Positions 7,201 to 57,798 of a stretch of DNA of 64,000 bases are shown one piece after another. The position numbers and the translations under genes are program-made. Source of the DNA: Clostridia bacterium (GTDB lineage Bacteria > Bacillota > Clostridia > TANB77 > CAG-508); the NCBI GenBank assembly GCA_017458285.1, contig JAFTFU010000002.1, forward strand, positions 7,079 through 71,078, written 5' to 3'. Each line of letters opens with the position of its first letter. Within the stretch, counting starts at the first letter, position 1. The notes under the pieces are model-generated. The model did not search any database. It worked only from the letters and a program-made list of their open reading frames with translations, and was not told the DNA's origin.

Positions 7201-10053
7201 ACTTGAATCACCTGAGCTTTTTGTATTGCCAGTCAATTTATTCCATGTGTTAGTCGTGATTTTGTAAGGTTTGATGAGTTCATCTAAGACTTTTTCTAAT
7301 GCTGCATTGCCAGATCGAGTAAATTGTCCATGATCTCTATAATTAGCATAATCAGCATAAGTTAAGCCATAAGATGATAATAAAGCATTTATTTTTTCTT
7401 GTGCTTCTGGCGAAGCATATCTTTTTAATTTACCAGTGTTTTTATCTAAAAATGCGCCACTTTTACTGTCATTATCAATTATATTGTTAATCTTAGAATA
7501 TACTTGCGATTCTTCAAAATGTTTTTGTATTTCGGCTTTAGCTTTAATCGCATTAGAAAAATTAGTAATGTCATCATTATATAATTGTCCGAAATCTTTA
7601 ATGAGTTTGCCTTGTTTAGATAATAATTCTGCATTAGTATTTTGTAATGCTGCCTTTTTAATTTCAGATAAATTATCCCAATTAGTAATATCAATTCCAT
7701 AAAAGTCATTAAAATACTTTATCTCATCTTGAATTTGTTTTATAGAATCGCCTAATAAGTTTTCATTATCTTTTTCTTTCTCTTGAACTGCTTTATGATA
7801 CGCCTCATAGTCATTTTCATACATTTCAGCGTTGTACAAATCTTCATAAGCATCTTTTTGTTTAGCAACTAATTCAGTAATAGCAGTTTGCATACCTTCC
7901 ATATCATTGATATATGGACGTAAAGATTGATAAGTGTCATCTGTCATTATAGTGTCGATACTGGAAAGCGATAAAGAACCATTTTCGCTGATTTCTTTTG
8001 TAAAACCAATAAGAGTTGATATACTACTTGATACACCTTTAATAGCCTTTTGAATGTCCTCAATTAAAGTCTTAGTGTCTTTAAGTTCAGGCTTTAACTG
8101 CTTTAATGCGGCAATCATACTTTGAATAGATTTTTTCGCTTCATCAGATAAATCCTGTGTATTTAGTACTTTTTCTAATTGACCTATTAATTCTTGTGGA
8201 CGTTCTTTTATTACCTTATCTATTCCTTCTGCTAAATTGCCAAACTTTTCATCTGTCCAGTCAACATATTCGCCAAGAGTAGGGAAGAGGTCAACTAATT
8301 CAACAACATCATTTGTTGTTAATTTTCCAGCAAAAAGGTTTTGATATGCTTTGTTGAGTTTATCAACATCGGAATGAACAGATTTTAATTCTTTTGTTTG
8401 GTCTTTGGATAATGCAAAAGATGATTCATCGTTTTTTTCTGCGACCTTTGTTTTAACAATTCCAAGTTTTTCTAATGCACCAATATATTGTTCAACTGTA
8501 ATTTCAGCTTGACCAGTAGCATCAGTCATACCGTTCCATAAATCTATATAACCTTTAATATTATCATATAAATTTTTCTCATCACCCGACAAAGATTCGT
8601 AATTCAAATCCCCTTTTGATAATATTGAATTAATATCATCAGATGTATAATTATTCTTATTAACAATTTCTTTTATTTTATTACTATAACCATCGGGCGA
8701 ACCTTCCAATTCTGCTTGAACATCAACAATAATAGGTGTTTCTTTTGATTGTTGGTACACTTGTTTTTGTACATCAGCAAACCAATTTTTTATACTTTCA
8801 CCAGAAACATTATCCTCATCAACAAAATCAAGATTAAATATATCATGAAAAATGTCACGTAATTCAGTGTATGCTTGCGTGATTTCATCTTGATTGCCTG
8901 AAGCAAGTGCCTCTGTATAAGCCTTTTTCTTTTCAACTATTTTTTCGTAATATTCAGAATACTTATCATCAGTCAATATCAGATTTTCTACAGCCGTATC
9001 ATAAATCGTTTTATTAGTTTTATATTCATCACTACTTAATAATTCACTTTTTCTTTCTAATATTTCTGATTTTAATTCCTTAAATCCTTGTAATTCTTGT
9101 TGTTCATACCAATTTAAACTATCTTTAGACTCATATTCCTTTATTTTAGTTTCTACGGCATTATGAAATTCATCCATAGTAGCCAAAATTTCATCAATAG
9201 TACCACTAAATCCAACTTGTGTGCCGCTACTATTAGGCATAATATAAATATTTTTACCATTTTCATCAGCCCATTGGTTTATCCATTTTTTACTACTAAC
9301 TTGTTGTCCGCTTCCCCAATTAACACCCAAGAAACTATTTCCGTTAAAATATTGATTAGCGTTTTTAGTTTCTGTAACATGAGTATCGTTCCAGTTTTTT
9401 GCCGCTTCTTTTTTTAATTGGATTAAAGCACTGGTTTCACCTTGTATAGATTCAGTTATATAACCTACAGCATCCTTTTCCTGACCATATTTCTTTATCA
9501 GTTCTTCTTGAATTTCGAGTAATTGTTTTCTTTTTTCTGTAGCTTCTGTTTGAGAAATACTATCATAATTTAAAGCTGTTTTTAAATCATTAATTTTACT
9601 AATATAACTATCAATATCATCAAAAGATTTTTTTAAATCATTTGCGCTATCAGCAACATCTTCAATGCTATTAGACCAATTAGAAAATACCGTAACAGCA
9701 GTCGAAACAACACCAATTACTGTTGCTGCTGCAACCGCTATCGCACCAATAGGATTGCTTGCCATCGCTACTGTCAAACCTCTAAAAGCAGCACTTAAAC
9801 CACCTGTTGCCGTTGTCAACGCTCCTGTGGATGCAGTTGCTGCCATTTCGGCTTGTGAAGCTGCTAAAGTAGCAGCAATTTGTTTTGCCTCTGCCTCAAC
9901 AACACCATGATTCATAAGAATTTGTTGCATCTGTTCTTTATTTAATCCTGTCTTAACAAGGCAAGCCTTTAAATCTTCTACAGACATATTTTTAGTTACG
10001 GTATTAACTAATTCTAAACTTGTCGCACCCTCAATTCCCAGAATTTTTAATTG
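4297..10053 (-). CDS. Tail tape-measure protein, exon 2 (C-terminal ~1918 aa)
   Basis: Long helical/coiled-coil protein. The annotated TTG start has no RBS. The frame continues exon 1 once 10054-10924 is removed (…KNLD|QLKIL…). Confidence 0.85.
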   Translation of the reverse strand, partial: QLKILGIEGATSLELVNTVTKNMSVEDLKACLVKTGLNKEQMQQILMNHGVVEAEAKQIAATLAASQAEMAATASTGALTTATGGLSAAFRGLTVAMASNPIGAIAVAAATVIGVVSTAVTVFSNWSNSIEDVADSANDLKKSFDDIDSYISKINDLKTALNYDSISQTEATEKRKQLLEIQEELIKKYGQEKDAVGYITESIQGETSALIQLKKEAAKNWNDTHVTETKNANQYFNGNSFLGVNWGSGQQVSSKKWINQWADENGKNIYIMPNSSGTQVGFSGTIDEILATMDEFHNAVETKIKEYESKDSLNWYEQQELQGFKELKSEILERKSELLSSDEYKTNKTIYDTAVENLILTDDKYSEYYEKIVEKKKAYTEALASGNQDEITQAYTELRDIFHDIFNLDFVDEDNVSGESIKNWFADVQKQVYQQSKETPIIVDVQAELEGSPDGYSNKIKEIVNKNNYTSDDINSILSKGDLNYESLSGDEKNLYDNIKGYIDLWNGMTDATGQAEITVEQYIGALEKLGIVKTKVAEKNDESSFALSKDQTKELKSVHSDVDKLNKAYQNLFAGKLTTNDVVELVDLFPTLGEYVDWTDEKFGNLAEGIDKVIKERPQELIGQLEKVLNTQDLSDEAKKSIQSMIAALKQLKPELKDTKTLIEDIQKAIKGVSSSISTLIGFTKEISENGSLSLSSIDTIMTDDTYQSLRPYINDMEGMQTAITELVAKQKDAYEDLYNAEMYENDYEAYHKAVQEKEKDNENLLGDSIKQIQDEIKYFNDFYGIDITNWDNLSEIKKAALQNTNAELLSKQGKLIKDFGQLYNDDITNFSNAIKAKAEIQKHFEESQVYSKINNIIDNDSKSGAFLDKNTGKLKRYASPEAQEKINALLSSYGLTYADYANYRDHGQFTRSGNAALEKVLDELIKPYKITTNTWNKLTGNTKSSGDSSDSGLDTSTTETGKVFDWIERRLKKFANNTKQVFSKVGDYITFKGKNKQISKSINAIEKEISFNKNAYGYYMNEANKVGLGSYWKKAVREGGINLSEIKNADLKEKIENYQELYDKAISCRDAVSDLKETEKEYIRQRLDNIETYYENRINYINADSDYYNNLDKDTRSINKNYKKLGKNYKKTEKYETDKAANLYGQLQDDIKHGRIKVGDDDYYKYKTDIKNAQSNARQAANARHQLAVEELGDIQTRWENRSGTYGSKISMIETKASDTTRKTTKNYSGLRSAYKQQSVYALNEASELQKKLGEAVKNGDIQKYSKAWYEWTENIKKAKENAEEYKKTIHELAVEEFNDIATKHDNKLNQITNQATKLNESIAQTQAKGYLVSTKYYEAQIKNEKKNNAELVSKKNELSIKLQTAIASGDIKVGSQAWYELTDEIEKTDIAIQQSTTSLIEFNNSIRDIKWQIFDLIQEKISQITQESDFLIKLMQNDKLYKEEGQGAGQLTNNGKATMGLHGVNYNTYMAQADKYAKEIIKIDKQLAKDPYNQDLAERREELLKLQQQMILSAEDEKQAIVDMVKEGIELELNALQDLIDKYNEALDSQKDLYDYQKKIKDQTKEITSLQKQLAAYTGDTSEETKSKVQQIKVSLEEAKENLEETQYDKFVSDQKKLLDDLYNEYEKVLNERLDDVDSLISDMIVNINEDANVIKDTLIEQASDVGYKISSTMNNIWKGGAQPVLSEYGINFTNATTNVISAINSLTNSVNTMVSALDKKANNDTNVKNTNSKSATKNNSSNTSNIKSFLSGLSGVGDITRNAKSFLSGLSGVPKFKQGTQSVNKSQMAWTQENSIPEAIIRPSDGAILTPLAKGDMILNGNATSNLFSMMNDPSAFIKDNLFDNNSSDVAPNISNNTNSISVSLDNVNFNLPNVKNYDEFIYAMQHDKKFESLIKSMTTDRLFGGSSLKKYHI
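4723..4804. repeat. 31-bp direct repeat, two copies (4723-4753, 4774-4804), encoding KSFLSGLSGV twice
   Basis: aacaccgctcaaaccactcaaaaaactttta occurs twice with a 51-bp period. Confidence 0.85.
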
Positions 10054-10080
10054 CAATATAATTAAAGGCTATAAAGTTAC

Positions 10081-10109
10081 TTGACATTATTCAAATAAAA
10101 CGATATAAT
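10081..10109 (+). promoter_or_regulatory. Consensus sigmaA promoter for the intron cargo gene
   Basis: TTGACA(10081-86)-17 bp-TATAAT(10104-09). Confidence 0.9.
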
Positions 10110-10134
10110 ATTATCAAAAAGGTAGGTGTTGTAT

Positions 10135-10455
10135 ATGAGTGATAATATTCGTACTATCGGAATAATAGATTATGATTGTCCGTTTTGTCATCATAACAAA
10201 TCTTATGTTAAAATGTATTTAGAATATACAGAATTTGGTGAATGTATGTCTTGTGGGAAAGAGACTTATCAAAAGGTTTTAAAAACATTTGACTTTAATA
10301 AACCAAAATCTGTTCAATGTCCTTATTGTCATTCAACAAATACTAAAAAAATATCCACAACTTCAAAAGTTGGTAGTGTTGCCCTCTTTGGTATTTTTGC
10401 CGCCGGCAAAGTTGCTAAAGAATGGCATTGTAATACTTGTAAAAGTGATTTTTAA
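10135..10455 (+). CDS. Double zinc-ribbon protein with a short hydrophobic segment; antisense cargo inside the intron
   Basis: Four CxxC pairs (CPFC, CMSC, CPYC, CNTC) and segment VGSVALFGIFAAG; RBS AAAGGTAGGTG upstream of ATG 10135; own promoter and terminator. Confidence 0.85.
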   Translation: MSDNIRTIGIIDYDCPFCHHNKSYVKMYLEYTEFGECMSCGKETYQKVLKTFDFNKPKSVQCPYCHSTNTKKISTTSKVGSVALFGIFAAGKVAKEWHCNTCKSDF

Positions 10456-10459
10456 TTTT

Positions 10460-10485
10460 AACCGTCATAGAAATATGGCGGTTTT
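10460..10485 (+). terminator. Terminator hairpin of the cargo gene
   Basis: AACCGTCATA-GAAA-TATGGCGGTT then a short T-run, 4 nt after the stop codon; the G·U pair favours the plus strand. Confidence 0.7.
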
Positions 10486-31236: not shown

Positions 31237-31446
31237 ATATTCACACTACTTTCTTTTGTTTTTATTTAGTTTGGTTATTGGTAGGGCGACGTATCCTACA
31301 TTTCGGATACCTTTCCGGATGTATCGGAAACCATTTCCGCTCTCAATAACCTAATAAGGCACAGTGACAGACTATAAAGCCTACCGCTGTGCCGACCCGT
31401 AAAGAGTATATCTTTGTTTATAAGACCCGCAAGGGGTAGAATTGTT

Positions 31447-31522
31447 TGGGTGCAGAGGCAAGACTTGAACTTGCAATCTTCAGGATATGAACCTGCCGAG
31501 CTACCATTGCTACTACTCTGCA
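31447..31522 (-). tRNA. tRNA-Met (CAT anticodon)
   Basis: TGCAGAG/CTCTGCA acceptor stem, anticodon loop TTCATAT, T-loop GTTCAAG, encoded CCA. Confidence 0.85.
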
Positions 31523-32194: not shown

Positions 32195-35152
32195 TTATTT
32201 CTCTTGTGAACTACTTAATTCCTTCCTTTTTAAATACGCACGTTTGTTTTGTTCTTTTCGCAATATTTTATTATGAACTTCATTACACTTATTGCATCTA
32301 CAAGTTTGATTATCTTTATTCTTTATTTCAAACCAATCACCACAATCAATACATTGAATTACTTTTGTTATTTGTCTCTTGTGTTTTGATAAATTTTCAT
32401 ATAATACATTTCCATAGCAAGTCCATAATAAATCTTTATACTTACTGTCTTTTATACCATATAAATACTTAACAAGAATATCAGCAACTTCTCTATCTGA
32501 ATATCCAAACTGCGATAATTCATTAGTAATGTCATTTATTATTGTCTGATATTTAGCCTTTTGACGTGTTTCAGTTTGCAATAAAGCATCTCTTGGTATA
32601 GTTTGCGAATCCATAGTATGTATTTTGCCAAAATATAATTTAGCTTTTTCAATATACTTTAATACAACAGGATTTGTACCTTCAATCAATCTACCATTAT
32701 CTGCTTTGCATATTTGAAATTCAATATCAGGATTACTCATTAATAATTTATAATCAGGTTTAGGCAATTTTTTTGATTTATGATTTTTAGTATATTTACA
32801 ACTTATTCTCGGATTTGGTATTAAAGAATTAAGTTTATTGACAAAACTATTGTTTATAGATACTGTTTGTTCATCAGACTTATCTTTAGCATATTTAAAA
32901 AAATAGGGGAGAAGATTATTTGTAAAAGATGTTATTTGTTGTTTAACCTGTTGTGGGAACTCAGGTTTATAAAGTGTTTTTGCGTAATCCACAATGTAAT
33001 TATTTTGACAACATAATCTTTTAATACAATCTATTGTTTGTTTTTTTTGCTCATCATTTCCATAAATAAAAACATCATCATTCCATATTTTAGAAATGTT
33101 ATTACTATAAATTCCTATATTACCACCTGTAAATGCAGTAATTAAACCATTATAAATATTCTCATCATTTATCAAAGATGGTTTTGCCTTTTTCATTTCA
33201 TAATATAATGGCACAATATTAAATTTTCTTATATTTCGTTCAGCCACATCTATTATGGCTTTGTCTGATACTACAAGCGATTTATCTCCGTCAACATCGA
33301 ACTGGAGAACTTTACTTATCATATCACTGCTACTTGTATATAAAGCATTAGTACAAAACCATTCTCTTATTTTCTCTTGTCTTTCGTTTTTATTACAAGC
33401 AATATTATTCCTAATACAATGTTCCATAAATAAATGCGGCGAACGTAAACAGTCTAACTTATCATTTAATCTAAACAGCCAACAAAACACTTCACCATCT
33501 TTTAACAATCCTCGTGGTGTTTCTATTCCCATAAACCAATGTTCGCAGGCAGCATAAAAATCAGGAAGAATAAAAGTGTATTTACCTTTGACCTGTAATT
33601 TACCTGATTTATATTTTTTTATCAAACTATCCTTTATATCTTTTAATTTAATTCTGATATATACGTCATTAAGCAATTCAGGATAAATCTCAATAGCCTT
33701 CTGAAATGAAGTCTTATATAGATTATAAGGTGTAACGCCAAATACATTTTTAATATTATCAACTGAGGAACAAAGATTGTTTAATTTATCAATAGAAGAT
33801 TTTGCGATTTGATATATTTCCTCATCTGTAATATCAGTTAAACTTTGAAGCATTTGATAATTGATAGTTGCATCTTTAATTCGTTCTTCTTCCGGATTGG
33901 TATAATTAGCAGAACAACGATATTGTTTAAAATATTCTTTGTACTGTTCCCAATTACAGTAATACGAATTAAACTTAAACTGACTTTTTGTAAATATAAC
34001 TTGTATATCTTCTTTTATAATATCGTGTTCTACACCATATATATCTTTTATTATAGATGAACATTTATTGTCTTTTATAAATTTTACAAAATCAAACACT
34101 CCAAGAAGTCCTTTAACAAATGGCATCCTCGCCATCTTATTACATTGCTTAACACCAAAAGCATTTGGTAATATCATTCCTGCACCGTCAGTATGTGTTA
34201 TAGGTATATAGTCTTTTTTTCGTGTAATCGAAAAATCTGCATCATCTATAAAATCAAACTCACCATAAACATTGGTTTCAAAATCATCTATGACTATTGT
34301 TTTATCTATATCAAATTCTGTCCATTCATCTGTTGCACTATTGATTAAGGCAAGATAACTAAGATACTTATTAGAATTGCAACCGCCTTGTCTATTTATC
34401 TCATCAACAGTCAAACCACACATTAAAGTTTTTTCATATTTCTTCCATACGCTTTCTTTGATAAATATACATTTTTTTGTTCTTATCTGTCCAGCTGAAG
34501 AAGTAAAGTAAATATATTTTTCACCTTTATATTTATAGCCATTAAATAGAATATCTCTTAATATATCAAAATAATATATTTGGATAACCATAAAATCATT
34601 AGTTAATTCATTTGGTTTAGCACCGATTGTTCTTGTAAAAGCTGATTCAAAGAAAGATATAATCTTCACATTTTTATCATTTAGTTGTCTTATATGGTCT
34701 TTGCCTTTTGTTTTTATATTATAATCTGCTTTATTCTGTAAAAGTTTAAGCAGTTGATTTTTTATATCTTTAATCTTTTTTGTTTTTAATTCTACAATTC
34801 TTTTAAGTTTAACATATTGACCAGTTAATTCTAAAATTTCTTTTGCATTATCTTTATTATCATCATTAAAAGTCATAAAAAAACTATTATCTGATTCTGC
34901 CTGTTTATAAACAGACAATAAATCTTTTTTAGACAGACCATATTCATATAATTGCCTTTCGATATTTTTAAGCCCTACATAAGTTCGTTTACCTTTACTA
35001 TGAAAGTTTTTATATACCCCACCTTTAAGCAACTGTTTGCGTTCCATTCTAATCTGATGATTAAGTTTATGTAGATACGCTTCGTGATTACTATAAAAAT
35101 CACCTGTATCAGCAGCGTATATTTGAATTTGAGAATCAAGCAATATAATCAC
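32195..35152 (-). CDS. yonO: YonO-like single-subunit phage RNA polymerase
   Basis: 985 aa; catalytic DxDGD (QFDVDGDKSL), SSAGQIR, HTDGAG, LRSPH and VDYAK motifs; lies upstream of the late genes. Confidence 0.88.
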   Translation of the reverse strand: MIILLDSQIQIYAADTGDFYSNHEAYLHKLNHQIRMERKQLLKGGVYKNFHSKGKRTYVGLKNIERQLYEYGLSKKDLLSVYKQAESDNSFFMTFNDDNKDNAKEILELTGQYVKLKRIVELKTKKIKDIKNQLLKLLQNKADYNIKTKGKDHIRQLNDKNVKIISFFESAFTRTIGAKPNELTNDFMVIQIYYFDILRDILFNGYKYKGEKYIYFTSSAGQIRTKKCIFIKESVWKKYEKTLMCGLTVDEINRQGGCNSNKYLSYLALINSATDEWTEFDIDKTIVIDDFETNVYGEFDFIDDADFSITRKKDYIPITHTDGAGMILPNAFGVKQCNKMARMPFVKGLLGVFDFVKFIKDNKCSSIIKDIYGVEHDIIKEDIQVIFTKSQFKFNSYYCNWEQYKEYFKQYRCSANYTNPEEERIKDATINYQMLQSLTDITDEEIYQIAKSSIDKLNNLCSSVDNIKNVFGVTPYNLYKTSFQKAIEIYPELLNDVYIRIKLKDIKDSLIKKYKSGKLQVKGKYTFILPDFYAACEHWFMGIETPRGLLKDGEVFCWLFRLNDKLDCLRSPHLFMEHCIRNNIACNKNERQEKIREWFCTNALYTSSSDMISKVLQFDVDGDKSLVVSDKAIIDVAERNIRKFNIVPLYYEMKKAKPSLINDENIYNGLITAFTGGNIGIYSNNISKIWNDDVFIYGNDEQKKQTIDCIKRLCCQNNYIVDYAKTLYKPEFPQQVKQQITSFTNNLLPYFFKYAKDKSDEQTVSINNSFVNKLNSLIPNPRISCKYTKNHKSKKLPKPDYKLLMSNPDIEFQICKADNGRLIEGTNPVVLKYIEKAKLYFGKIHTMDSQTIPRDALLQTETRQKAKYQTIINDITNELSQFGYSDREVADILVKYLYGIKDSKYKDLLWTCYGNVLYENLSKHKRQITKVIQCIDCGDWFEIKNKDNQTCRCNKCNEVHNKILRKEQNKRAYLKRKELSSSQEK

Positions 35153-44484: not shown

Positions 44485-45168
44485 ATGAGCTTTAAAATTG
44501 AAAACGGTGTACTCAAAAAGTATGTAGAAGAACCAGAAGTTACAAATATAGTTATTCCCAACGGCATAAAGAGCATTGATGATAATGCATTTGAGGGTTG
44601 TGAAAGTCTAACAAGTATCACCATACCCGACAGCGTGACGAGTATTGGCGATGGGGTATTTGAGGGTTGTGAAAGTCTAACAAGTATCACCATACCCGAC
44701 AGCGTGACGAGCATTGGAGATTGGGCATTTGACGGTTGCAGCAGTCTTACAAGCATCACCATACCCGACAGCGTGACGAGCATTGGAGATTGGGCATTTG
44801 ACGGTTGCAGCAGTCTTACAAGCATCACCATTGACAACAGCGTGACGAGAATTGGATGGATGGCATTTGAGGGTTGCACCAACCTAACAAGCATTACCAT
44901 CCCCGACAGCGTGACGAGTATTGGCGATGGGGCATTTGAGGGTTGTGAAAGTCTAACAAGTATCAACATCCCTGATAGTGTGACGAGCATTGGATATAGG
45001 GCATTTTACGGTTGCGAAAGCCTAACAAGTATCATCATTCCTGACAGTGTAACAAACATTGGAATTGATGCATTTAGGGGTTGCAACAGCTTAACCATAT
45101 ATGGAAATCGTGGGAGTTATGCGGAAAAGTATGCTAAAGGCAGGGGTATAAATTTTATTACTGTTTAA
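44485..45168 (+). CDS. BspA-type leucine-rich repeat (LRR_5) protein
   Basis: About 8 tandem 23-aa repeats of IPDSVTSIGxxAFxGCxSLTSIT; near-identical 69-bp DNA units. Confidence 0.93.
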   Translation: MSFKIENGVLKKYVEEPEVTNIVIPNGIKSIDDNAFEGCESLTSITIPDSVTSIGDGVFEGCESLTSITIPDSVTSIGDWAFDGCSSLTSITIPDSVTSIGDWAFDGCSSLTSITIDNSVTRIGWMAFEGCTNLTSITIPDSVTSIGDGAFEGCESLTSINIPDSVTSIGYRAFYGCESLTSIIIPDSVTNIGIDAFRGCNSLTIYGNRGSYAEKYAKGRGINFITV

Positions 45169-49303: not shown

Positions 49304-50350
49304 ATGAGTCTTGAAAAATCAAACATCGCTTGGTCAGCAAAGCAGATAGCAGCAATGGTTAAGAATGGAAAAATTGACTTCAATCATATTGTTCAGAGAT
49401 CGTTTGTTTGGGAACGTAGCAGAAAATCAGCATTGATTGAAAGTATGATACTTGGTTATCCTGTACCGAGTATTTTTGCAAAAAGAATTGATGATGGTAC
49501 AGGTAAGCGTGGTGGTAATATATATTACATTATGGATGGCAAACAGCGTTTATCAACTATTAAAGAATATCTTAGTGATGAGTTTGAATTGACAGATTTA
49601 CCAACAGTTAAATATATAGATAATGAGACTGGCAATGAAACCGAAGAAGATATTTCAGGAATGACTTTTAGTGAACTGCCTGAAAGTTTGCAAGATATAT
49701 TGAAAGATGTAATGTTTAGTATTATTTATTTTGATAACCTTACCAAAGAAGAGGAAAGGGAGCTATTCAAAAGACTTAATGCTGGAAAACCATTATCAAC
49801 AAAATCAAAGGTACTTGCATCTTGTAGGGATATTGAGGGTATTCTTGACATAGGCGAACACGAATTGTTCAAAGAAATGCTCACAGAAAAAGCAAGAATG
49901 AATAAAAATCAGGTGTCTATTATAGTTAAGGCGTGGTGTATGTTAAATAAGCCTATTGAGGATATATCTTTTGAAGGTAAATCTTTAAATCCATTTACGG
50001 AAAATCTTGTTATATCTCAGGATGAAAGAGAAAGACTCGATGAAGTATTTAATTTAATCCTTGATACACACACAACATTGTTATTTCATAAGCATAATAA
50101 AGTAGCAAAGAAGCTTTATACAGAAACACACATGATTTCGTTTATTCCATATTTTGCGAAAGCTATAGATAGTGATTATAATAGTGACATTATGGCTGAA
50201 TGGATATTCAGTTTCTTCGATAGCGACAATGGCGCAAGCATCAATTCTGAATACAATGCTGCTGCTGGTGCTGGTTCTGCAAAGCCTGTAACTATTCAGA
50301 TTAGGAATAAGGCATTAGATGAAAGTTTCAAAGAATTTTTTAATAAATGA
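49304..50350 (+). CDS. DUF262 (ParB/Srx-fold, GmrS-like) protein
   Basis: QRSFVW, LIESMILGYPVP, DGKQR and FKRLN motifs. Confidence 0.85.
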   Translation: MSLEKSNIAWSAKQIAAMVKNGKIDFNHIVQRSFVWERSRKSALIESMILGYPVPSIFAKRIDDGTGKRGGNIYYIMDGKQRLSTIKEYLSDEFELTDLPTVKYIDNETGNETEEDISGMTFSELPESLQDILKDVMFSIIYFDNLTKEEERELFKRLNAGKPLSTKSKVLASCRDIEGILDIGEHELFKEMLTEKARMNKNQVSIIVKAWCMLNKPIEDISFEGKSLNPFTENLVISQDERERLDEVFNLILDTHTTLLFHKHNKVAKKLYTETHMISFIPYFAKAIDSDYNSDIMAEWIFSFFDSDNGASINSEYNAAAGAGSAKPVTIQIRNKALDESFKEFFNK

Positions 50351-53742: not shown

Positions 53743-53815
53743 GTGTTCGTAACTCAGTTGGTAGAGTATCTGACTTTTAATCAGAGAGTCGGGAGTTCGA
53801 GTCTCCTCGGACACA
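53743..53815 (+). tRNA. tRNA-Lys (TTT)
   Basis: Cloverleaf; anticodon arm TCTGA-CTTTTAA-TCAGA; GTTCGA T-loop; no encoded CCA. Confidence 0.92.
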
Positions 53816-53823
53816 CTACATAA

Positions 53824-53898
53824 TGCGGTATGTGTGTAATGGCAGCACATCAGACTTTGACTCTGAGAGTACAGGTTCGAGTCCTGTTACCGCAGCCA
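53824..53898 (+). tRNA. tRNA-Gln (TTG)
   Basis: TGCGGTA/TACCGCA acceptor stem, anticodon loop CTTTGAC, CCA end. Confidence 0.92.
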
Positions 53899-53903
53899 AA
53901 TAT

Positions 53904-53991
53904 GGAGGTATGGCGAAATAGGAAGTACGCTACAGACTTAAAATCTGTTGGTAGAAATACCGTGTGGGTTCAAGTCCCACTACCTCCACCA
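53904..53991 (+). tRNA. tRNA-Leu (TAA), copy 1
   Basis: GGAGGTA/TACCTCC acceptor stem, anticodon loop CTTAAAA, long variable arm, CCA. Confidence 0.92.
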
Positions 53992-54029
53992 ATTACAACA
54001 ATACATTTATATACCTCCTTTTTCTTTAA

Positions 54030-54111
54030 GACAAATCGGAAAGACGGTTGACAAATTGGAAAGACAGTTTGACAAATTGGAAAGACAGTTTGACAGCTCG
54101 GAAAGACGAGC
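54030..54111 (+). repeat. Four tandem 20-21-nt hairpin units GACA-stem-GGAAAGAC-stem
   Basis: gacaaatcggaaagacggtt / gacaaattggaaagacagttt (twice) / gacagctcggaaagacgagc. Confidence 0.9.
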
Positions 54112-54117
54112 AAATAC

Positions 54118-54201
54118 GCTGGTGTGGCGAAATCGGCAGACGCAAGGGACTTAAAATCCCTCGGTAGCAATACCGTACCGGTTCAAATCCGGTCACCAGC
54201 A
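54118..54201 (+). tRNA. tRNA-Leu (TAA), copy 2
   Basis: GCTGGTG/CACCAGC acceptor stem, AGGGA-CTTAAAA-TCCCT, long variable arm. Confidence 0.92.
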
Positions 54202-54256: not shown

Positions 54257-54781
54257 ATGATTAGAATTGTAGAAAAGAATTTGTTTGACAGCAAAGCAAA
54301 TTTTATCGTTCATCAGGTGAACGTTCAGGGCGTTATGGGATCAGGTGTAGCTAAACAAATAGCCGAGCAATATCCATTTGTTGACAAAGAATATAGAAAA
54401 TATGTATTTCATTGTCAAAAGAAAAATAAAAAGATACTTGGTACAGTACAATATGTTCCAACAGAAGTATGGGCTATTGGTTTAGTTGATACTATTAAAA
54501 ATAACAGAATAGAAAAATACGATGTAGATTATAAATATATCGTAAATTTATTCGGTCAAGAAAATTACGGCACAGGACTTCAAACAGATTTAGCGGAGAT
54601 GAAAAATGCTTTTATAGATATTCGTAAAAAGGCTTTAAGTGTGGGTGCATCAATAGCAATGCCCTTTAAGATAGGCAGTTGTCGTGGGGGTGCTGATTGG
54701 AAAGATGTCTATGCTATTATTAAAGAAGTCTTTGGCGATAGCGGATTAGACGTTGAAATATGTAGGTGCGATATGAAATAA
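54257..54781 (+). CDS. Macrodomain (ADP-ribose processing) protein
   Basis: NLFD, IVHQVNVQGVMGSGVAKQI, IVNLFGQ and PFKIGSCRGGADW motifs. Confidence 0.88.
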   Translation: MIRIVEKNLFDSKANFIVHQVNVQGVMGSGVAKQIAEQYPFVDKEYRKYVFHCQKKNKKILGTVQYVPTEVWAIGLVDTIKNNRIEKYDVDYKYIVNLFGQENYGTGLQTDLAEMKNAFIDIRKKALSVGASIAMPFKIGSCRGGADWKDVYAIIKEVFGDSGLDVEICRCDMK

Positions 54782-55414: not shown

Positions 55415-57798
55415 ATGGTAAATGTATTGAGTTTGTTTGATGGGATGAGCTGCGGAATGTTGGCTATGATGGGTGCAGGAGTTAAGGTTGATAATTATTA
55501 TGCGTATGAGATTGACAAATACGCTGTAAAAACAAGTCAACATAATTTCCCACAAATAAAGCAATGTGGTGATGTATTCAAAGGAGACTATACTTAATAC
55601 GAGGGGATTGATTATCTTATAGGTGGAAGTCCCTGTGTCCCTGCTGATACAAAAATTAAAACAGATAAAGGTTATAAAAAAATCGTTGATATACAAATTG
55701 GAGATATGGTATTGACTCACTTAAACAGATATATGCCTGTATCAAGATTATATAAGCGTAAAACCGAACATTTGTATAATATAAAATTTAATGGTAATGA
55801 AGTTTTGAAAATTACAGGCAATCATCCTGTTTACGTATATAGAAACAATAAATTTGAATTTGTGAGAACAGACCAGCTTACAATAAATGACTATGTTTGT
55901 GTCAACATCAATCAAAAAACAAATAAATTAGAATATTCAGACGATATATTATGGTTAGCTGGTAGAGCAATAGCAGATGGTTATTTGTCAAAAGATAAAA
56001 ATAAAGTTGTGATTTCTGTAGGTAAGAATAAAATATTAGAATTTGAACAACATCTTTCAAATATATCTTATTATATTTTACATAAAGATAGAGCTGCACC
56101 AGAATATTGCATTAACTCGCAAGAATTAACTGAGTTTTATGCTTATTTCGGAAATAGAAAAGCGTTAGATAAATATATACCAGATGAAATATTAAATCTT
56201 CCAAAACAATTATTAAAGAAAATATATGATGGCTATATATCAGGCGATGGATTTTTAAGAAAAGATAGACCTAATACTGTAATGTGGTGCAGTTCAAGTG
56301 AAGATTTAATATTATCTATGGGGTTGTTGACAGCAAAATTATTTGGCAAATATCCAACGACGACTATTCGTGAGGGTGAATATAAGCAGCTACCAAGTGG
56401 AATGTGTCATACAAATAAATCATATAATAGTCAAATTAGCATTACAAATAGATTGAATCCTGATTGTAAAATTATAGAAGATAAATTATTACTTAGAATT
56501 AAAAGCATAGATAAAAACAGCATTAATACAGATGTGTATAATATAGAAGTCGCAAAAGACCATTCTTATACGGTTAATAATGTTATTGTGCATAATTGTA
56601 CGTATTGGAGTATTGCCCAATCTCCAGATAAACGAGAGACAACGGCAAGCGGATTAGGCTGGGACTTATTCAGTCAGTATGTAAGAGCTTTGCGAGAAGC
56701 GAAACCAAAATACTTCATATACGAAAATAACAAATCAATGTCAAAAGAAATTCGTAAATCAATAACGGAGACATTTGGATTTGAACCTATTATGATAAAT
56801 TCCGCACTTGTTTCGGCACAAAACCGTCAAAGACTTTATTGGGTTGGCAAAAGAAACGATGATGGTACATATAGCAAAGTCGATGTTGAACAGCCAGAGG
56901 ACAGAGGGATACTGCTGAGAGATGTTTTGGACGGAGTGGCAATTAAAGAAAAATCCCCTTGTATAGATGCAAATTATTATAAAGGCGGTAATTACACAAA
57001 CGTAAAAAAACAAAGTGGACAAAGAATGTGTGTTGCCGAACCAGTGGCTTGCCGTTGTCGTGGTCGTACTGATAAAAATGGAAATGGTTATGCTAAATAC
57101 GAATGTAGAGATGATTGTAAATCTAATACTCTTGATACTAATAGCACAAACGGAAATATGGTTGCTGAACCTGTTAATAAATCAATTAGAGTAGGAATTT
57201 ATCCTACATCAGATGGTCGTATGTTAAATTCTCAGGGAATGAGAATTTACAGCGTGGATGGCAAATCGGTAACACAGTCTGCACAAGGAGGAGGTATGGG
57301 AGCTAAAACAGGATTGTATGCAATACCTGTTACAAAGAATTAACTGATAGTGAAATGGATTATATGGTTCGTGACTATTCGGACAGACGTTGGAATTTTT
57401 GCCAAAGACCTGCACAAGATAATAAGGCAAAATGTTTGGTAGCAAATATTGCAAAAGGTGTTCCGTATAATGTATGTGCAATACCTGTTGAGTTTGAAGA
57501 TGGAATACCAACAAAAGCTATATCGTATGCTGATGGCAAGACGTATAAAGTTTATGAAGTAAAAGAGGGTCAAATAACTATTAAAGAAAAACAATATCCT
57601 ATTAAGTTACAAGATGGATATTACATTATTCGTAAATTGACTGTATCTGAATGTAAGAGATTGCAAACTGTTCCGGAATGGTTTGAATTTCCTGTAAGTG
57701 ATACTCAGGCGTACCGACAATTAGGGAATGGCTGGAGCGTTGATGTAATAGCACATTTAATAAAAGCGACATTAAAAGACAAACAAGAAAGTGTGTGA
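55415..57798 (+). pseudogene. C5-cytosine DNA methyltransferase with intein, interrupted by an in-frame TAA (55595-97) and a frameshift (~57335)
   Basis: Motif I SLFDGMSCG, IV GGSP|C, VI YENN, VIII QNRQRLYW, IX RKLTVSECKRLQ and X YRQLGNGW, spread over three ORF fragments. Confidence 0.85.
55634..56596 (+). mobile_element. Intein (321 aa) with LAGLIDADG homing endonuclease
   Basis: Starts CVPADTKI; block B ITGNHP; LAGRAIADG and YDGYISGDG motifs; VYNIEVAKDHSY; ends VHN followed by Cys+1. Confidence 0.93.

Follow-up and report, generated by a model that had tools for sequence, protein, structure and literature searches.

A group I intron in a phage tape measure gene carries an antisense gene whose N-terminal domain tracks the variable start of the following exon

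The 64,000-nucleotide stretch of phage DNA analysed in this study (hereafter the window) contains a tape measure protein (TMP) gene on the minus strand which is interrupted between 10925 and 10053 by what sequence comparison identifies as a real group I intron of the self-splicing type. A small passenger gene lies inside this intron in antisense orientation. The gene is not a random passenger, since its family occupies the last position before the 3' splice site in nearly all complete introns, and comparison of alleles indicates that the N-terminal domain of its product is co-inherited with the first part of TMP exon 2. Based on sequence and on analogy with characterised prophage proteins, the reading favoured here, at a probability of about 0.4, is that the passenger may act as a membrane-tethered exclusion or tail-blocking factor which recognises the corresponding TMP segment and is shut off when the late genes are transcribed. 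The features discussed below are listed in Table 1.

Table 1. Features of the TMP gene, its intron and the passenger gene, in window coordinates.
Feature	Position	Strand	Details and basis
TMP exon 1	10925..14029	-	1035 codons from first start codon; PhageMin_Tail E 7.8e-18; PHROG tape measure matches; RNA contig joint
Group I intron (871 nt, ending in G10054)	10054..10924	-	RNA joint; covariation; G precedes first exon-2 codon in homologs
TMP exon 2, 1918 codons	4297..10053	-	PHROG tape measure matches; hydropathy
Variable start of TMP exon 2, ~50-65 codons	9859..10053	-	co-inherited with passenger N-domain
Internal guide sequence UUGGUC	10879..10884	-	P1 with last three exon-1 bases (U.G wobble); P10 with first three exon-2 bases
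Ribozyme core	10494..10808	-	pair counts on 29 non-redundant introns; fold z-score -4.0
P3	10808-10804/10543-10539	-	core helix
P4	10797-10793/10655-10651	-	core helix
P6	10649-10647/10560-10558	-	core helix
P7	10554-10548/10499-10494	-	core helix
P8	from 10538/10507	-	core helix
Promoter TTGACA-17-TATAAT, perfect sigma-70/sigma-A consensus	10081..10109	+	sequence scan
Shine-Dalgarno-like purine-rich ribosome site	10119..10128	+	sequence; similar tract in homologs
Passenger gene ORF, 106 aa	ATG 10135..TAA 10455	+	antisense in intron; alignments; models; pN < pS
Terminator-like 10-bp hairpin with only four T	10460..10485 (hairpin 10460-10483)	+	folding; homolog loci

The window corresponds to positions 7079-71078 of contig C48, in which a 109,317-bp unit is succeeded by 57,834 bp that repeat the start of that unit exactly. 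C48 is a circular phage with an overlap in the assembly, and the second copy of the passenger gene in the contig, which lies in the repeat, is the same DNA as the first. The phage is probably temperate because its gene content includes a terminase, tail genes, two tyrosine recombinases, an RdRP-like polymerase, and a Peptidase_M78 and HTH pair, and we take it to resemble SPbeta. Near-identical DNA is contained in bovine and sheep gut runs, and the named genomes with homologous loci are mostly Lachnospiraceae and other Clostridia. The arrangement is present in the cultured lysogens [Clostridium] asparagiforme DSM 15981 (L151), [C.] symbiosum ATCC 14940 (L153) and Enterocloster lavalensis KCTC 15153 (L160). 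The passenger gene was found in none of the 40 searched relatives of the 28% GC genome into which the contig is binned, and the host of the phage is therefore not fixed by the binning. Elsewhere in the window, a 985-aa protein with a Pfam RdRP match (32195-35152, minus strand; E 5.5e-10) is probably a phage RNA polymerase, presumably of the YonO kind; an intein domain interrupts a C-5 cytosine methylase (55706-57343, plus strand); and Rfam matches correspond to a skipping-rope RNA adjoining a tRNA (31273-31522, minus strand) and to a four-tRNA cluster (53743-54201, plus strand). A tyrosine recombinase (14079-15137, minus strand) is encoded immediately upstream of the TMP gene, as also seen in relatives L005, L007 and L016. 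Possible host-interaction or counter-defence genes, all on the plus strand, encode a BspA-type leucine-rich-repeat protein (44485-45168), a GmrSD-N protein (49304-50350) and a Macro-domain protein (54257-54781).

TMP exon 1 ends in an Asp codon, the last base of which, U10925, is the 5' splice site. In alignments with relatives, the guide at 10884-10879 pairs with both exon ends, and the intron is therefore assigned to 10924-10054, in frame; in relative L016, the guide and exon 2 are altered in concert. After these boundaries had been set from the alignments, a 1421-nt contig of metatranscriptome run X19 was found in which 10053 is joined to 10925 without ambiguity and 871 nt are skipped. This contig, found in one of the four RNA runs, belongs to a relative (24 differences in 398 nt and 154 in 1015 nt); the ribozyme occurs in run X19 as a contig of its own, and in run X16 one contig begins exactly at 10925. 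The X19 contig could be an intron-less DNA allele rather than spliced RNA, but no such joint occurs in four DNA-type runs, all from other samples, or in a junction-pattern scan for intron-less alleles, which returned two chance matches only, and those intron-less alleles that did turn up differ in sequence at this point. Two other arrangements were rejected, namely a 3' splice site at G10069, after which the frame first opens (its P10 is poor, it is not conserved, and the RNA joint lies at 10054), and separate translation of exon 2 from TTG 10056, which has no ribosome site and is TAG, ACG or AAG in homologs. Hydropathy analysis places a hydrophobic segment at exon-2 residues ~95-122, just after the variable segment. 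TMPs with this intron are currently annotated as two broken genes. A distant TMP gene (L001, 739-4004) is uninterrupted at the site studied here and has two interruptions at other sites, each insert with a sense-strand ORF of ~400 aa, possibly encoding endonucleases. In L100 and L123, the base that follows the terminal G and opens exon 2 is G and not C, so that the first pair of P10 is a G-G mismatch.

Covariation was assessed on 29 introns of less than 93% identity, out of 75 near-full matches, using an alignment built without structure, although the helices had been read from these same sequences. Compensatory changes with pairing kept were observed in P1, P3, P4, P6, P7 and P8. P1 is paired at all three positions in 28/28 introns, with compensatory changes at the middle one and the U.G pair in all 28, and P3 is paired in 144 of 145 cells. 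The P7 bulge covaries (GAC in 23/29, ACT in 5/29), and the guanosine-binding-site G-C pair is present in 23/29, the six misses being probably misaligned. The Rfam Intron_gpI model (RF00028) gave 12.3 bits against a gathering score of 50, with no intron at gathering level, which is a library miss and not a structural failure. The P10 run varies from 3 to 12 bp across introns and is mostly 8-12 bp in long introns and 3-9 in short ones. The first-pass annotation, made from the letters of the window, had described the gene as intron cargo, and the covariation and the X19 RNA joint support the intron.

The passenger ORF has the features of an independent transcription unit under purifying selection, as judged from sequence comparison. 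Its promoter, a consensus as the first-pass annotation had claimed, is the only 12/12 match among 17 sites in 9000-12000, and none of 200 shuffles of the upstream 110 nt reached a score of 12. Among 20 window-type loci, the match is 12/12 in six and at least 10 in 12, and a hairpin followed by a T-run is found behind the stop codon in 18/20 (judged by eye); promoter, ribosome site and hairpin keep their places in these loci despite differing sequences. The terminator scan did not call the hairpin at 10460-10483. On the intron strand, the 10460-10485 element is the first hairpin after P7, and the earlier claim that the terminator ends just before P7 agrees with the 3' strand of that helix ending at 10494. 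The gene has its own promoter and terminator inside the late operon, as expected of a moron. RNA contigs cover 10132-10358 and 10405-10586 and touch the ORF, these contigs carrying no strand, level or lysogen state; the constitutive expression stated in the first-pass annotation is a prediction. Across 13 loci, pN is below pS in both halves of the protein (0.39 and 0.20 versus 0.68 and 0.66).

It has also been considered that the transcript and not the protein matters, with head-on transcription from the strong antisense promoter damping leaky tail expression in the lysogen. The conserved placement of promoter and terminator, and a terminator that ends short of P7, would suit such a role, but selection is seen at the protein level in both modules, third codon positions account for 8 of the 11 differences listed for run X6, and the passenger mRNA overlaps neither splice site nor guide, leaving this explanation highly improbable. 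The predicted transcription start lies ~60 nt from the 3' splice site G10054, which is upstream and is not overlapped by the mRNA, so that the transcript pairing near the 3' splice site suggested in the first-pass annotation is not upheld.

The passenger protein contains the four CxxC pairs reported from the first inspection of the sequence (C15/18, C37/40, C62/65 and C99/102), with the hydrophobic stretch between the last two confirmed at residues 79-91. The best 19-residue Kyte-Doolittle mean is 1.23, and the stretch is too short for a membrane-spanning helix. Instead of the double zinc ribbon originally described, the protein is made up of two modules, a variable, exchangeable N-terminal zinc ribbon (~residues 1-50) and a conserved C-terminal CxxC-helix-CxxC module of ~47 residues (~60-106), and reads of runs X5 and X7 depart from the window sequence at 10314-10316, which is the module border. 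The model of the C-module, based on 145 sequences, predicts a knuckle, a strand, a helix at residues 79-89, a strand and a knuckle (pLDDT 71.7, helix 56-57). This predicted layout is LITAF-like, although the module is not filed as LITAF and the profile match is weak (PF10601, E 0.05, 14.2 bits versus a cut-off of 23.8); LITAF is not among the 25 families listed for 145 family members, and the Atlas value of 0.88 for the LITAF likeness is a lead only. Fold searches with the whole model returned generic zinc-ribbon or beta-sheet matches only (best E 0.13, Z 5.1), those with the C-module reached Z 2.8 at best, with two family-like viral matches (E 0.006 and 0.011), and a PDB sequence search gave generic ribbons only. 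The HMM and structure searches named in the first-pass annotation as a check on the gene gave the weak LITAF match and yielded no clear fold match. The family is large and without a name, with 2949 representatives at E up to 0.001 and 1054 at 1e-10 (clusters at 50% identity). Scans of viral contigs with the single protein gave few matches, and GenBank phages gave one partial protein match and no intron match.

The absence of GIY-YIG, HNH or LAGLIDADG motifs noted at first inspection holds more broadly, since no nuclease family, PD-(D/E)xK included, was found in Pfam, PHROGs, PADLOC or NCBIfam for the passenger protein or for 145 family members, and PADLOC gave no match of any kind for the passenger protein. 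Introns usually carry a homing endonuclease, a bottom-strand one is described in phage LittleE (PMC3706429), and intron-less TMP alleles exist, all of which would be compatible with a new kind of homing endonuclease or the remnant of one. Besides the library results, this explanation has to contend with invariant residues that comprise four cysteines and one glycine and include no His or acidic residue, a histidine that is missing in the second C-module type, N-domains that are exchangeable, and intron-less alleles that differ at the site; it is considered very remote.

The place of the gene within the wider intron family was assessed by a scan with an intron motif, independent of the gene, which identified 51 loci, 41 with both ends; this set is redundant, as 33 belong to one human-gut group. 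An antisense gene of the passenger family is the last before the terminal G in 40 of the 41 complete introns, the exception being L130, a window-type intron whose last antisense gene (10977-11441) encodes a zinc-ribbon and DUF4177 protein. The count of 158/158 antisense cases owes part of its value to how the loci were selected; free of that bias, it is 40/40. Intron lengths range from 825 to 5835 nt; a 9-kb span in L178 contains tail genes and is probably not a single intron. A TMP exon flanks the gene in 73/80 viral, 43/80 genome and 50/80 metagenome loci, many of the rest being short, while 25 genome loci with at least 2 kb upstream show no exon marker and have mostly non-phage surroundings. 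The other cargo comprises 87 families, of which ~11 are defence- or toxin-antitoxin-like (AbiD, DarT, DarG, KwaA, ThsB-TIR, two PemK, GmrSD/NsnA-like, Panacea, PBECR3, PDC-M13 and Fic). Terminator-like hairpins on the sense strand were detected in 21/42 cargo regions (L087-L134) and not in the window; long introns would therefore need antitermination or trans-splicing.

The link between passenger and TMP is seen in the human-gut group, represented by 25 distinct alleles after exclusion of L122, which has an internal deletion. About eight N-domain types occur, each with one type of exon-2 start (residues 10-50). Over these exon-2 residues, mean identity is 98% for pairs with the same N-domain and 25% for pairs with different N-domains, and 298 of 300 allele pairs are concordant at a 75% cut, whereas the C-module, exon 1, the ribozyme and later exon 2 are common to different types at 99-100% identity. 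For 34 non-redundant cassettes, N-domain similarity correlates with that of the exon-2 start (r 0.57; partial 0.55, permutation p 0.0005) and more weakly with the C-module of the same protein (0.29) and with later exon 2 (0.25). These alleles are related and the co-inheritance statistics consequently overstate the link. Twenty pairs among the 34 cassettes are discordant: 12 involve the deletion contig L059, five (L013/L180/L274 and L166/L205/L266) look like offset errors on inspection, and three (L045 with L069, L071 and L072) lie at the threshold. L059, identical to L122, keeps the gene and has lost ~75 codons of the exon-2 start in-frame between two short repeats, which is either real or an assembly error. 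Window-type exon-2 starts were all paired with window-type zinc ribbons, except in L130. Taken as a whole, TMP is a mosaic of swappable blocks. Among L087-L134, the last 100 residues of exon 1 likewise fall into several deep alleles that reassort freely, as does exon 2 after the hydrophobic segment.

The two variable parts are separated by ~27 conserved bases and are less than 100 bp apart, so that co-inheritance is expected from proximity alone if recombination seldom falls between them, and the same pattern could arise without binding. The N-domains include zinc ribbons as well as helical and membrane-spanning forms that are unrelated to one another, while the TMP segments resemble a single kind of helical loop; in the N-domain and in the TMP segment alike pN stays below pS, with no sign of positive selection in either. 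These points weigh against the blocker reading, as do the weak LITAF likeness, the lack of a PADLOC match, and the alleles L059 and L130. The main rival to the blocker reading is a generic moron, that is, a lysogen-expressed accessory or defence gene with a target other than TMP, in which cargo swaps use the conserved C-terminal DNA as their recombination anchor, the exon-2 link reflecting hitchhiking between two crossover zones. In agreement with this proposal, the C-module DNA is homogenised (pS 0.24 between the window and L135, versus 0.54 and 0.59 in the N-domain and TMP segment), partial C-modules occur inside the cargo arrays of L115 and L116, 53 of 240 loci contain several copies of the family, the surroundings are non-phage in ~25/80 genome loci, and the N-domains are unrelated. 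It leaves unexplained, however, the deep types at the exon-2 start while the flanks are common, and the last position held by one family while 87 other cargo families turn over. The generic moron is a credible possibility that falls short of even odds.

Copies of the gene outside the intron are relevant to both of these explanations. A scan by the later part of exon 2 identified 21 loci, of which 14 have the intron and gene and seven have an uninterrupted TMP with another variable-segment sequence. The gene is absent at this place in the seven intron-less alleles, three of which are on contigs that carry it elsewhere (L300, L314 and L311, the same records as L060, L066 and L076). In two of these three contigs, a captured ~850-bp cassette shows 94-96% identity to intron versions, with the ORF intact and an adjoining TMP remnant that is frameshifted or truncated. 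Captured cassettes sit in intron-less phage contigs of ~25-46 kb whose TMP segment differs, 11 of 38 copies without exon markers keep a TMP remnant, and bacterial chromosomes also hold the captured cassette. Because the captured ORFs are intact beside a decaying TMP remnant, the gene is retained without the intron and without its own linked TMP, although such copies fit any useful defence gene as well. The moron-type anti-phage role put forward in the first-pass annotation is the best reading, in view of the defence genes at the same intron position of relatives and the persistence of the gene outside introns.

A third possibility is that the passenger helps its own tail gene, either as a chaperone for the cognate TMP segment or as a splicing aid across a long 3' insert. 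Its near-constant presence and tight pairing with its own exon-2 start suit a helper as well as a blocker, and the long introns have no obvious P9.0 pairing. Nevertheless, the promoter is of host type and points against the late operon, so its activity would be lowest at the very time a helper is required; in addition, intron-less phages and chromosomes retain the gene, L130 does without it, and the 8-12 bp P10 of long introns can itself fix the 3' site. A helper function is therefore regarded as improbable.

A blocker acting on TMP is proposed because prophage defences are known to target TMP (Tab, Ltp and gp15) and the variable segment lies just before the hydrophobic segment. According to this proposal, host polymerase would make the passenger mRNA in the lysogen; the C-module would bind one zinc and its short helix would dip into the inner membrane, as in LITAF; and the N-domain would bind its cognate TMP segment in a phage that is entering or being assembled, blocking DNA entry or tail building. 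Once the phage grows lytically, late transcription running head-on into the gene, together with intron RNA complementary to its mRNA, would turn the gene down and spare the phage's own tail. The intron would let lock and key sit less than 100 bp apart in an essential gene and be swapped as one ~0.85-kb cassette. In its full form, this family of introns would have become a lock-and-key immunity cassette which places a membrane-anchored blocker in the essential TMP gene; the blocker's swappable N-domain would read a hypervariable segment across the 3' splice site and set exclusion types among gut phages, late transcription and excised intron RNA would switch the blocker off, and defence genes would accumulate by the kilobase in the same intron loop, as at a hotspot. 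This combination is speculative and, taken as a whole, rather unlikely. If the TMP pairing is true, it would explain the deep types in a stretch of an essential tail protein and would amount to a tail-based exclusion code for abundant gut phages, with natural matched and mismatched pairs. Even if the pairing is false, anti-phage genes can be mined from the intron. The common view of phage group I introns is that of selfish endonuclease carriers, and the present intron family carries a large unnamed protein family together with known defence genes, over as much as several kb of its 3' end.

Among known systems, both TMP group I introns and an antisense frame in a phage intron have been described, with endonucleases or none (PMC2504315, PMC3706429). 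The introns TMP-IVS1-3 of Bacillus cereus group prophages resemble the present one in being in-frame group I introns in a prophage TMP gene, with a stop codon at the start and with P1 and P10; as described there, they are of the IA1/IA2 type and carry a homing endonuclease or nothing (PMC2504315). In the present intron, unlike in TMP-IVS, P3 follows directly after P7 and the P1 loop is long and hairpinned, and non-nuclease genes with promoters of their own take up 0.4-5 kb or more at the 3' end of these introns. The capsid intron of mycobacteriophage LittleE is likewise a virion-gene group I intron with an opposite-strand frame, but that frame is reported to resemble a LAGLIDADG endonuclease (PMC3706429). 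A literature search, with supplements and most subscription journals outside its scope, returned no description of this intron family or protein. The LITAF domain (PF10601), described as monotopic, shares with the C-module two cysteine pairs around a hydrophobic stretch and, by prediction, a knuckle-helix-knuckle order, although the stretch here has 13 residues versus 22, and zinc and membrane binding here are predicted (PMC5095921). With regard to function, HK97 gp15, encoded beside the TMP gene, keeps its own phage from entering in a way that depends on the tail (PMC3594210), and Ltp interacts with TMP (PMC3952083). Both are small membrane-associated prophage proteins that block DNA entry via tail or TMP features, as the passenger is proposed to do; Ltp is a lipoprotein, whereas gp15 is inserted into the inner membrane, and neither is a zinc protein, intron-borne, or provided with an exchangeable N-domain. 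Tab, from Pseudomonas phage JBD26, acts on TMP to block tail assembly, and differs in being encoded between terminase genes, in needing anti-Tab, and in having no intron or linked variable TMP segment (PMC10884400). The comparison with Tab is one of layout, and at that level the likeness is that of a minus-strand gene with its own promoter in the late operon, expressed from the prophage and targeting the TMP of close relatives (PMC10884400), as would be predicted for the passenger.
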